A stretch of DNA of 63,828 nt, the filler included, from Vannella sp. (Eukaryota), in assembly GCA_023345925.1 (NCBI GenBank). It is 7 parts of 7 records of this genome, joined end to end, with 100 filler letters (N's around TTAATTAATTAA, not from the genome) between each part and the next. Parts side by side here need not be neighbours in the genome. Positions count along the whole stretch, not along the records: positions 1 to 13,186 come from JAJQQN010000871.1; 6 more parts are not named here. The stretch is one strand, 5' to 3'. The position numbers were made by a program, and so were the translations under genes. Numbering within the stretch: the first letter of the stretch is position 1; each line of letters opens with the position of its first letter. Positions 6,364 to 10,931 of this stretch are shown piece after piece. The notes beneath the pieces are model-generated. The model saw nothing but the letters and a program-made list of their open reading frames with translations, ran no database searches and was not told where the DNA came from.

Positions 6364-6995
6364 CTAAAGGTCGATCAAGCGGAAGACTCGTTCTGGGGAT
6401 AGCTGAAGATCATGGCCAGTGATCTCTTGGATCTCCTTGTTGAGGAGACCAACCAAGCAATGGCGATCGCGCGTGTTCACCCACGCCGTTGTGTTCTCGT
6501 CCCAAGTGTAGCGCTTGGGCCCACTCCATTCCCTGTCAACACTGATAGCACACGCAGAGGGACATTCATACCTTAAAGGGGAGGACAGCCAGATCTGCTG
6601 GTTAGGGGGCTGCTTGTTAAGGACAAAGTCATTCCCCCCTCCGAGGGAGAAGCTCAATACGCCATCCTGGCTTCGTTGTTAGTCGGCTGGGGGAGAGTTT
6701 CGGGTAGGATTTCCCCCACAGAGTACTGTAGATCAAAGCCAGGTAGCTCCTGCTTCTCCTCGATCTCTCCAATCAAGTCCGAAAGAGCCTCCAAGGTGCC
6801 GAGGACAAGCGTCGCGTAGTTCTCCACCTCCGGAGCCCCTAACTCCTCCACATGAGCATACCAACGAACAATCACCGGCCTCCTCTGTTCCCCACTACAA
6901 GAGGCCCCCGGCCACGCCCCCAAAGGCACCTTCCCCGCGCTCCATCCCGCTCGCCAACACCGCCATCCCAACACGCCTGTCGCTGCCCTCCGCAT
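6364..6995 (-). CDS. FXN: Frataxin (mitochondrial Fe-S assembly); multi-exon
   Basis: Arg-rich presequence; FVLNKQPPNQQIWLSSPL...SGPKRY signature. Confidence 0.92.
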
Positions 6996-7055
6996 TCCAA
7001 ATGGAATAGATACAGCCTCCTCATGATTTGATGCTCAAAGCACCAAGGAATGGCC

Positions 7056-7093: not shown

Positions 7094-7961
7094 ATGCCTT
7101 CCCATGAAGACTACGTTGCCTTGGCAAAGGTGGGGTTCGAGCAAGGTGAGTAGGGGATGGCAGGAGGAGTGGGAGCTGATGTGGGGGATGGTGGAGTGGC
7201 GAGTTTGATGTCGGAGGAGTTGGGAGCTCCCTTTTGGGAGTATGTGACGGAGACGGATGGATGTGTGCTGTATCGTCGTATGAATGAGGAAGCAGATAAC
7301 AGCTCTGGAATCCGCACGGTCAGGGTCCAGATCCCTTTCCCTGTCCCTGCTAAACGCGTGTTTGACTTTGTCTGGGACCTGAGCAACCGCCGCAAGTTTG
7401 ATAGCCTCGTGACAGACCTTCAAGTTGTTGTAGACATCAAAGACGAGCTCGTAGAGCCCGTCAAAGCGTGTGATGTCCTCTACGCGTCCTTTTCAATGCC
7501 TTTCCCGATCTCCTCGAGAGACTTTGTGCATGTGAGGTATGTCTGAGTGACTCCTGTGAGGTACTGATAGGTTCAGAGCTTACCAAGAGTATAAAGGAGG
7601 CTGGATGACGTCAGCAAAGTCAACAACGCACCCAAACTTCCCTGAGCGTGGTCTTGTTCGTGGAAGCGTGAGTGCTGTGCCTCTGGATGTCTCGGTGGAT
7701 GTCTTATGAGTCTCAACAGATCGATGTGGACGGCTTTATCTTCCAACCGGATCCAGAGGACCCGGAAAACAAGTGTCTCGTCAAATACGTTGCTCGGATG
7801 GACCCCAAAGGTGCGTCTCTCGTTCCACCCGTCTCCCTCCTCTATCTAACATCCCTCTAGGAAGCCTCCCAGCCTTCGCTGTCAACTTGGCCAACCGAAA
7901 AGCAACTCAAACTCTCGTAGCGATCCGCTCAGCCCTTGTTAAGGACCTTATGAACAAGTAA
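7094..7961 (+). CDS. START-domain lipid-binding/transfer protein; multi-exon
   Basis: ATG 7094, intron 7146-7196; VWDLSNRRKFD, MPFPISSRDFVHVR, HPNFPERGLVRG, YVARMDPKG(intron)SLPAFAVN. Confidence 0.88.
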
Positions 7962-8045: not shown

Positions 8046-9449
8046 ATGGCGACGTGTACAAGGGAGCAGGACCAGCGAGTGGTACGTTGTCGTGTTAAAG
8101 GAGGTGCGGAACTCATGCGTGCGGGTAGTGGGTGGAGCTGGGGGACTTCCTTCGGGGAGAGAATGGAATCACCATCAAGGACCGGACTTACAACTTCCGC
8201 ACGTATCGCTCAGTGTTTATAGGTGCGCTCTCTACTTGATCCATCTGTTCTACGCTCACTCCCATCCTTCTTCGTTCCAGGAAGCGAGGCAGTGACGTGG
8301 ATGACCTTAAACGGCTTCGCTACAAGCAGGGAGAGTGCTGTGGCACTTGGACAAGAGATGCTAAGGGGAGGTATATTCCACCATGTCAACTATGGCTACG
8401 ACTTCAAAGACCAGAACCTCTTTTACCGCTTTCCTGTTCGTCTCCCCCTTCCTTCGCTCCCTGTTCCCTCCAGAGACTCACCATCGAGCAGGAGGACGAC
8501 CCCTTACAAAGGAGGGTCAAGGTTACAGGGCCATCAGTGGCTGAACTGATATCGGATTGTGGAGTGACCAAAGCTGGTTGGGTGCTGGGAAGCGGGAAGA
8601 TCTTCTGGAACCGCCGCTATCTGGTCGTCAAGCAAGACGAGGGCAAGCTCTTCTACTTTCATAGCAACCTGGACCACTCCCCCAAGCGCGTGTTCGAGTT
8701 GGGCGACGGAGTGGGCGTTCGCGAAGAGATCGGAAGCCGTGCGAAGAAGGGCAGTTACTGCTTTACCATCTTCTCTTCGGCAAGTTCCTTCACCTTTGCT
8801 TGTGAAGACAGCGTGGATCAAGAGAGCTGGATGGGGGCTCTAGTGGATGCGGGCATTGACATGGAAGAGGACGAGACCGCCGCTGGTGGTCCTTCCTCTC
8901 TGTTCGACTTTAACTGCATTGATATCGACGGAAACGATGTTCCACTATCAAACTACGCAGGAATGGTCTGTTTGGTGGTGAATGTCGCCACCAAGTGAGG
9001 AAAGACCGCCGTGAACTATCAACAGCTGCAGGAGCTCTATCAAGAGTTGGCTCCTCGCGGGTTCACGGTGTTAGCTTTCCCTTGTAACCAGTTTGGCCGC
9101 CAAGAACCTGGTACAGAGGCAGAGATCAAGGCATTCGCGACGGGAGTGTACGGCGCCGAGTTCCCTCTCTTTGCCAAAGTGCGGGTCAACGGTGCGGATG
9201 CCCACCCTCTGTGGAAGTTCCTTAAGTCTTCCCTCAAGGGCACCTTCGGTCAGAGCATCAAATGGAACTTCACCAAGGTCAGGAAGCCCGTTTCGTTGCG
9301 GTCTAATGCTCACTCAAATGCAGTTCCTCGTGGATCAGCAAGGCATTCCACGTGAGCGCTACGGTACTCCCACTAACCCTGCGGGAATACGAAAGAGCAT
9401 CGAAGCTCTCCTAGTAGGAGAGCCGCTGGGTCCCAGCGATGCTGAATGA
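8046..9449 (+). CDS. DEP-PH-glutathione peroxidase (GPx4/PHGPx-like) fusion selenoprotein, ~398 aa, Sec encoded by TGA 8996-8998
   Basis: Exons 8046-8081, 8129-8222, 8281-8435, 8492-9277, 9324-9449 (1197 nt, in frame). DEP: GITIKDRTYNFRTYRSVFIGSEAVTWM...AVALGQEMLRGGIFHHV...FKDQNLFYRF. PH: KAGWV...WNRRYLVV...DQESWMGAL. GPx: VVNVATK-TGA-GKT, AFPCNQFGRQEPG, IKWNFTKFL. Confidence 0.9.
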
Positions 9450-9487
9450 GCGCGACTCTTCATCGAAGGACCAGATGGCACCCTCGC

Positions 9488-9553
9488 AGGTCTCCAATGA
9501 CGAGTGCACTGAAATCCTTTCAAGGACAGTGTACTCTGAGCTAAGATAGACCT
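9488..9553 (+). promoter_or_regulatory. Eukaryotic SECIS element, type II
   Basis: Helix I AGGTCT/AGACCT; core ATGAC (9497) / TGAG (9537); 10-bp helix II GAGTGCACTG/CAGTGTACTC; AAA bulge 9512-9514; apical mini-stem TCCTT/AAGGA; lies 3' of a GPx with an active-site TGA. Confidence 0.92.
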
Positions 9554-9614
9554 CTGAGCTGCTATCTGCGGTCCAATACACTGCTTTTTGTTCATTTCCT
9601 CGTGGCTGGGTGGG

Positions 9615-10931
9615 ATGAACACTCTCAGGGAGTCCACGAAGATGCAGATCGTCTTGCGGACAACGTTAGACTCCTTGGCAAGTGAGGACAATGATGTGAG
9701 TGAAGAGGAATACGACGCTGATGCCATGGACGAGGAGGACGAGGAGGAACCGTTGGAGGAGATGCCTGCGACGTTCTCTGTGTCCAGCCCTGTCGATGAG
9801 TATCTCTTCTTCTCATCAGAGGATGAAGATAACGAGGAAGAGGAGCTCCTGGACTATTCTATCCTCCCTGCTGAGTCTGCGCTGGCGCCCCCTTCCTCCC
9901 AGGCCGCCGCAGCAGAAGGAGAGGAGAAGGAGACCGAGGCAGTGCAAGAGGACCTGTTTTACGTTCGAGACTATCTTAGGAAACGAAAAGAAGAGCCTCA
10001 GTACCCTCGTCTGGACTGCTTTGGCGCGATAAGCGAGCACGAAATGACCGAAGAGGAGAGCCTCCTTCATCATCACGAGCGCATCTCTCGCCTTGCAGAC
10101 CTCTATGGGGGACAGTTTAGACGTCTCTATGACTCCTTACAGTCTGCGTTCAAGCAATATCGAGTCCTCCACCGAGAATTGCTCTTCGCAAAGCGAATGG
10201 AGCAAGGCGGTTACTCTGCCTCGTTGACTACAGATGCAGGCGGCTACGGACTCACCATATCTGCGTCTTCGTCATCCAATCCAACACCCATGACAGAGGC
10301 AGAGCGAGCTGAAGCCAACCGTCATGAGGAGGACTTTGTCTTTTCCTCTCTCATGAAGCAAGTGATCCACTACACTGACGTCTTCCGCGAAGAGAACCTC
10401 TCTAGGAAGCAGTCAGAGTCAGAGTACGCCGCTTCTGCTGCCGTAAGTACTCCCGATCTTGCGAACGAGGCCGGAGACTGATCAGTCTGGGAAGCCTCGT
10501 CGATTCCCTCGCTCTTTAGAGACGAGAACACCTGAAGGAACTCAATGTGTGCTTGAAGGATGCCTCATGAGACAACTCCCACCCACCAATTACTGTTATT
10601 CACGTAAGAATGGAAAGGAGGGTCCGTTCTTTCACTGATCACGCTTGTTTCAGACATCCTACACGACCCACACCAGACCTTGTTTGTAGGATGCACTTTC
10701 CCACTACAGTCCAGTCAGCCCTGCAACTACCCGGTGCTAGTCAACCAGCCAACGACATTCTGTGCCGCCCACGCCGACCTTCCCAACTACGTCCGACCCT
10801 CTGGGAAGCATTTAACTGTCGAGGAGGATCCCAGTCTCCTTGGTAAGCGCGCAGCAAGTGATGCATCTCTCTACCAGCTTGAAGAGTTGCTGCAACCGCC
10901 ACCATCAGCCGACAGTTTGTTCCCTTACTGA
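9615..10931 (+). CDS. KANSL2/INO80D-like protein with C-terminal C3Hc3H zinc-finger region; start uncertain
   Basis: Acidic N-terminus; RLADLYGGQFRRL helix; spliced C-terminal CVLEGC...PPTNYCYSH(intron)ILHDPHQTLFVGC...CNYPVL...FCAAH. Confidence 0.65.

Follow-up and report, generated by a model that had tools for sequence, protein, structure and literature searches.

Glutathione peroxidases of the GPx4 type guard membranes against lipid peroxidation and are, to our knowledge, known only as small single-domain proteins. GPX4 itself consists of a single domain and docks on membranes by means of its own basic patch, which in the human enzyme we take to be formed by K48, K125 and R152. Adjacent DEP and PH domains occur in pleckstrin and pleckstrin-2 (PH-DEP-PH), which carry an extra N-terminal PH domain and no catalytic domain. 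Joining of a selenoprotein domain to another module has likewise been named in microbial eukaryotes for three algal fusions, SELENOM-pVHL, SELENOM-ShKT and GST-MSRA, each of a single species and, in the text available from that source, none with a GPx, PH or DEP domain (PMC7539508). The same text, as far as it was available, gives ten GPX genes for Emiliania (PMC7539508). In the available part of PMC8614756 the word 'fusion' is absent, the GPx genes of Trichoplax and Amphimedon were counted with DEP, pleckstrin and fusion unmentioned in the accessible sections (PMC3473315), and the thioredoxin reductase of Acanthamoeba is the sole selenoprotein with which the accessible part of another paper is concerned (PMC11459619). 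No description of a PH/DEP-GPx architecture was found by full-text searches of literature other than subscription journals and domain-architecture databases, and the earlier note on this DNA likewise knew of no described protein with the DEP-PH-GPx architecture. It is possible that such genes have been listed before without comment.

The window analysed here is a stretch of 63,828 nucleotides of Vannella sp. DNA (GCA_023345925.1), made up of seven parts joined end to end with filler between them. It contains a gene of five exons (Table 1) encoding DEP, PH and GPx domains in 399 codons, that is 398 amino acids and a stop (approximately 44.2 kDa). The exons are separated by four GT-AG introns of 47, 58, 56 and 46 nt, and the sole internal stop of the spliced frame is the TGA at residue 264, within NVATK-TGA-G.

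Table 1. Features of the DEP-PH-GPx gene, with positions counted along the whole window
Feature	Position	Strand	Evidence or remark
Exon 1, aa 1-12	8046..8081	+	start Met and conserved N-terminal Cys
Exon 2, first DEP helix and DEP start, basic hairpin	8129..8222	+	DEP profile 1-19
Exon 3, remaining DEP, P-Rex/DEPTOR-like	8281..8435	+	E 2.5e-13; closest solved DEPs found with family sequences
Exon 4, PH, linker and most of GPx, one frame through TGA	8492..9277	+	
PH domain, aa 121-214	8567..8848	+	Pfam PF00169 E 4.4e-9; best PDB match TAPP1 PH 1eaz, E 8.2e-6
PH-GPx linker, short, acidic, of conserved length	8849..8899	+	spacing in 36/36 aligned members
In-frame TGA, predicted Sec264, catalytic residue	8996..8998	+	TGA at site in 23/23 PH-GPx loci
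Gln299, catalytic tetrad	9101..9103	+	
Trp353-Asn354, catalytic tetrad	9263..9268	+	
Exon 5, coding part, end of GPx with Arg369, then terminal TGA 9447-9449	9324..9449	+	
SECIS-like element, 3' UTR	9488..9553	+	Rfam SECIS_1, fold z, pattern scan

The claim that five GT-AG-joined exons give one 398-aa frame with three domains was upheld by comparison with relatives whose genes have no introns. P0143 is a single intron-free ORF of 390 amino acids on a 1388-nt contig, and the spliced model matches it at 64% over 387 aa with a lone gap of one residue, placed away from the splice joints. Over DEP and PH the model also matches five other relatives (P0142, P0010, P0145, P0009 and P0012) at 56-65%, 1-3 positions being gaps, and the start Met is common to the window protein and these close relatives. 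Removal of the four short introns is predicted from the genomic sequence, and intron-free relatives match across all four joints. The PH and GPx domains had also been said to share one uninterrupted exon through an acidic linker; Pfam places both inside exon 4, so that this join does not depend on splice prediction. The TGA is covered by contigs of two DNA runs from one study (X1, 8795-9718; X2, 8872-9334) with no differing letter, and the X1 contig may itself be the source from which the window was taken.

The GPx domain (GSHPx, PF00255) was recognised within exon 4 with an E value of 2.6e-43 and 146.5 bits against a cut-off of 27. Its catalytic tetrad is complete (U264, Q299, W353 and N354), in agreement with the active site NVATK-TGA-G and the intact Gln and Trp-Asn noted earlier. 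The top PDB matches of this part are a Schistosoma GPx and human GPX4, whereas GPX1/2/3/5/6 score about half as high as the GPx4-type proteins. In the alignment to vertebrate GPx4-type proteins there is no tetramerisation insertion, and no resolving Cys is present, the only Cys after the Sec site being that of FPCN; these features support the proposed assignment to the monomeric GPx4/PHGPx type. The fold is the same as that of human GPX4 and of the Schistosoma mansoni GPx (2v1m/2wgr), with Foldseek TM scores of 0.85-0.90 to the target and approximately 50% identity. The likeness to GPX4 extends from the U-Q-W-N tetrad and the lack of insertion and resolving Cys to the SECIS in the 3' UTR and to basic residues by the active site. 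Of the three basic residues of the membrane patch of vertebrate GPx4, two have counterparts in K266 and R369, and the loop of the third, the basic loop before WNF, is two residues shorter. The protein also differs by the DEP and PH domains in front. In three of 25 GPx domains of the family (L012, L019 and L026) a Cys lies close to the resolving position, and the reductant may therefore differ across the family.

The SECIS_1 match downstream of the gene reaches 31.4 bits (E 2.3e-4), below the Rfam gathering score of 35. It comprises an AUGA core at 9497, a helix of 10 bp, AAA at 9512-9514, an apical mini-stem and a 3' UGAG at 9537, and the region folds with a z of -3.18, none of 200 shuffled sequences being as stable. 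A SECIS-like pattern was found in the UTRs of 13 of 19 relatives against 47 of 400 shuffled UTRs, L017 and L018 being near-copies, and was not found in the other 6 of the 19 UTRs, one of which has just 26 nt. Rfam SECIS_1 was matched in 4 of 20 family loci, each time below the gathering score, and the sequence conservation of the family element is confined to the core and the AA. As regards the marks of eukaryotic selenoproteins, the in-frame UGA aligns to the Cys of homologues and the 3' UTR holds a SECIS with all core motifs at a sub-threshold score. The SECIS would recode UGA codon 264 to Sec. A TGA likewise terminates the gene. It lies 47 nt ahead of the SECIS core and would remain a stop by being too near to it, although some read-through giving a short C-terminal extension is possible; the terminal stop of the relatives is TAA or TAG in 17 of 19. 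General use of TGA as a Trp or Cys codon was rejected, there being no Cys form in the family. Ten long ORFs of the window (4956 codons) hold 70 TGG and 91 TGY codons, a weak test as these ORFs were defined from stop to stop. The only tRNA in the window is a tRNA-Thr.

The architecture is a conserved and widespread one, judging from its sequence relatives, rather than a one-off. With a profile built from 11 relatives, 27 protein clusters were found. Taken together, the searches for homologues covered lengths of 144-459, 89-471 and 584-2000 aa. The search of long proteins (584-2000 aa) gave two matches among 7994 scored, one P-Rex1-like and one a PH protein. The 27 clusters and P0011 make 28 proteins, of which 24 end just before the catalytic site, three have Trp there and one ends earlier, so that within the lengths searched Cys occupies the site in none of the 28. 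Trp at this position probably comes from gene calling with table 4, in which TGA is read as Trp, since sister sequences end there. Relatives with Cys, or full-length ones already annotated, may exist between 472 and 583 aa, a range that takes in the oomycete GPx cluster of 541 aa described below. A metagenome scan gave 80 loci, of which 39 were read, the remainder matching the start of GPx only. In 23 of the 39 a PH domain, with or without DEP, lies ahead of GPx and TGA stands at the site in every one; a near-complete GPx frame follows it in 19, in three the contig ends too early, and the frame of L011 is stopped after 19 residues. Among the 36 aligned sequences Pfam recognised a GSHPx domain in 34, a PH domain in 33 and a DEP domain in 29, and in all 36 the last Trp of PH and the Asn of GPx are 49-54 aa apart.

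Two members carry species names. The entry of the amoebozoan Stenamoeba stenopodia (EukProt) has DEP and PH and ends at the UGA. That of the haptophyte Emiliania huxleyi (EOD18387.1) has PH only, is filed as 'PH domain-containing protein' and likewise ends at the UGA. Amoebozoans and haptophytes are distant branches of the eukaryotes. Metagenome locus L018:151-720 is identical to EOD18387.1 (UniRef A0A0D3J4F2), and there the GPx frame and a SECIS continue past the UGA. With one named entry filed as a PH protein and the other ending at the UGA, domain-architecture surveys are blind to the fusion, which amounts to a blind spot of annotation. Members of the haptophyte type without DEP imply that this domain is dispensable. 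The fusion is testable now, since Emiliania huxleyi, from which a member of the family has been sequenced, can be grown in culture. One locus, L025:2449-3516, has a longer N-terminus and possibly a second PH-like region before PH-GPx. In the ESM Atlas, P0143 as query gave a cluster of 95 members, mostly oomycete GPx of 541 aa, as top match at full length (0.95) and as fourth match when the query was limited to DEP-PH (0.75). Neither a DEP nor a PH family is shown for this cluster, which could be a diverged relative or a tandem GPx.

In a tree of 108 GPx domains, from which L011, L014, L015 and L025 were omitted as their GPx frames are cut short, the 25 fusion members form one side of a branch with support of 72. 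A single origin of the PH-GPx fusion would be compatible with this tree and is not rejected by it. The fusion group together with one stand-alone sequence has support of 86 and adjoins GPX4-like stand-alone Sec enzymes, and the nearest relatives of the window protein are L001, P0143 and L002. The protein falls outside the animal GPX4 orthogroup, having three domains and belonging to a fusion group that lies, with weak support, beside the GPX4-like stand-alone group. The window protein is a member of the GPx family that probably works like GPX4 and is not an orthologue of animal GPX4. Only tentatively can these sequences be taken for a selenoprotein family that arose near the eukaryote root, was kept in amoebae and haptophytes and has escaped description because annotation ends at the UGA. 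In it a GPx4-like enzyme hard-wired to DEP-PH would act as a redox relay or as a reductase of lipid peroxides that is recruited by signals. If this were true, an ancient DEP-PH-GPx family would give a spatial control of membrane peroxidation that is absent from single-domain GPX4. Thirteen further loci (L027-L031, L036, L050, L053, L054, L070, L071, L076 and L079) encode stand-alone GPx with TGA at the catalytic site, and in the tree most of the contigs with these genes fall among sequences of bacterial type.

The DEP domain (PF00610) is divided between two exons, profile positions 1-19 in exon 2 (E 0.051, weak alone) and 21-72 in exon 3, which on its own scores 50.2 bits against a cut-off of 32.7; the DEP of P0143 covers the whole profile with 87.8 bits. 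By sequence, the closest solved DEP domains are those of P-Rex1/2 and DEPTOR, and the closest solved PH domain is the C-terminal one of TAPP1, in proteins where the order of the domains and their partners differ. For residues 1-262 of P0143 the nearest Atlas clusters are the pleckstrins, with a score of 0.79 that serves as a lead only. The DEP hairpin is basic, with K or R at two of its columns in 21 and 24 of the 26 members whose sequence covers them. PH domains binding 3-phosphoinositides (TAPP1/DAPP1/GRP1 type) have a signature of a beta-1 Lys and a beta-2 Arg. The window PH fails this signature, as compared with TAPP1 it has Gly for the beta-1 Lys, keeps the beta-2 Arg and has a loop two residues shorter. 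This makes signal-dependent binding of PI3K products doubtful for the window protein. Across the family K or R is found in 14 of 36 sequences at the beta-1 Lys column and in 30 of 36 at the next one, and the beta-2 position is Arg in 23. In most members the beta1-beta2 loop has a net basic charge and contains aromatic residues. AlphaFold models were obtained for the relative P0143 and not for the window protein, and they come without inter-domain error and so speak to single domains; with 36 sequences three domains were confidently folded (pLDDT 87.2, pTM 0.67), and with 12 sequences the model was poor (pLDDT 69.1, pTM 0.45).

The reading favoured here, with moderate confidence, is that DEP and PH would keep a monomeric GPx4-like Sec peroxidase on anionic membranes, at places where lipids are peroxidised or H2O2 is produced, for local reduction of lipid hydroperoxides or H2O2. 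Two surfaces would dock together on anionic lipids, the basic hairpin of DEP and the beta1-beta2 loop of PH with its basic and aromatic residues, and failure of the 3-phosphoinositide signature makes such a low-specificity, two-site binding likelier than a PIP3 switch. The linker of fixed length may turn the GPx face to the bilayer. Peroxide would then oxidise Sec, which by analogy with GPx4 chemistry would be re-reduced by a small thiol, likely glutathione, as there is no resolving Cys. Both the membrane targeting and the substrate of the window protein are predictions from its sequence, and so is the recruitment to signalling or phagosomal membranes put forward in the earlier note. The conserved wiring of GPx4 to DEP-PH would imply that in many eukaryotes the removal of peroxides is directed to certain membranes or sites of signalling.

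The cysteines of the family can suggest a different use of the same architecture. In the PH domain 32 of 36 sequences have the Cys of the YCF motif, and 23 have another one five or six residues before it. A pair of CxxC type occurs in 13, and beta-7 carries a Cys in 32 (23 and 9 in two adjacent columns). Outside PH, a Cys stands ahead of the first DEP helix in 17 of the 22 sequences having that segment. Along with the fixed PH-GPx spacing, this would fit a peroxide sensor or redox relay, in which Sec oxidised by H2O2 passes the oxidation to PH, N-terminal or partner cysteines and thereby switches DEP/PH binding, much as yeast Orp1/Gpx3 relays oxidation to Yap1. Nevertheless the CxxC is absent from the window protein, a Cys at the beta-6 position (YCF) is common in ordinary PH domains and the whole cluster could be structural or zinc-binding, and we consider a relay unlikely. 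Four sequences (P0123, P0125, P0147 and L005) begin with Met-Cys, the start motif of oxygen-sensing N-degron substrates; the Cys of the window protein is at position 4.

The local peroxidase of the favoured reading could also be recruited by proteins instead of lipids, if DEP and PH bound GPCR tails, G-protein subunits or the NADPH-oxidase complex and so placed the enzyme at the source of signalling H2O2. The PH domain lacking the canonical beta-1 Lys, the resemblance of the DEP domain also to those of RGS7, Epac and GPR155 and, as context only, the GPCR and RasGEF genes of the host would suit this explanation. On the other hand the closest DEP domains remain those of P-Rex and DEPTOR, which have been reported to bind phosphatidic acid, and the PH loop is still net basic in most members, so that protein recruitment appears rather improbable.

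It can further be imagined that selenium sets the ratio between two products, a DEP-PH adaptor when translation stops at the UGA and the enzyme upon read-through. In every member two complete domains do precede the UGA, and a Cys form is absent from the 28 proteins and the 23 loci. However, the position of the UGA is set by the GPx fold, the short product would end in about 35 unfolded GPx residues and the truncations in databases are artefacts of gene calling, which leaves such a switch with little probability. An artefact or pseudogene, with translation truly ending at the TGA or the domains coming from separate genes, can hardly be credited, for although the gene model was read from genomic DNA only, one exon holds PH and GPx, all splice joints are matched by intron-free relatives and the TGA, the GPx frame downstream and the SECIS are conserved across distant eukaryotes. 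That the gene model and the reading of the TGA as Sec are right is practically certain.

The host DNA is gene-dense with short introns, and matches to it were found in biofilm metagenome runs and, as short pieces, in freshwater runs. The six runs compared consist of DNA contigs and show no splice joints. It carries a RasGEF gene and a family C GPCR gene (ANF_receptor and 7tm_3) of several exons at 149-2703 on the plus strand, after which come two class 3 lipase frames. A spliced gene for a START-domain (lipid-transfer-like) protein at 7094-7961 on the plus strand, with a weak Pfam START match (E 0.004), ends 84 nt before the start of the DEP-PH-GPx gene; fusion of the two was ruled out, as the upstream gene has its own TAA (7959-7961) and the relatives start at the Met of 8046. 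Divergent from the START gene lies a frataxin-like gene (6364-7034, minus strand). Just past the SECIS, an open frame of 307 aa occupies 9558-10481 on the plus strand; it has a long run of acidic residues and matched nothing in Pfam.
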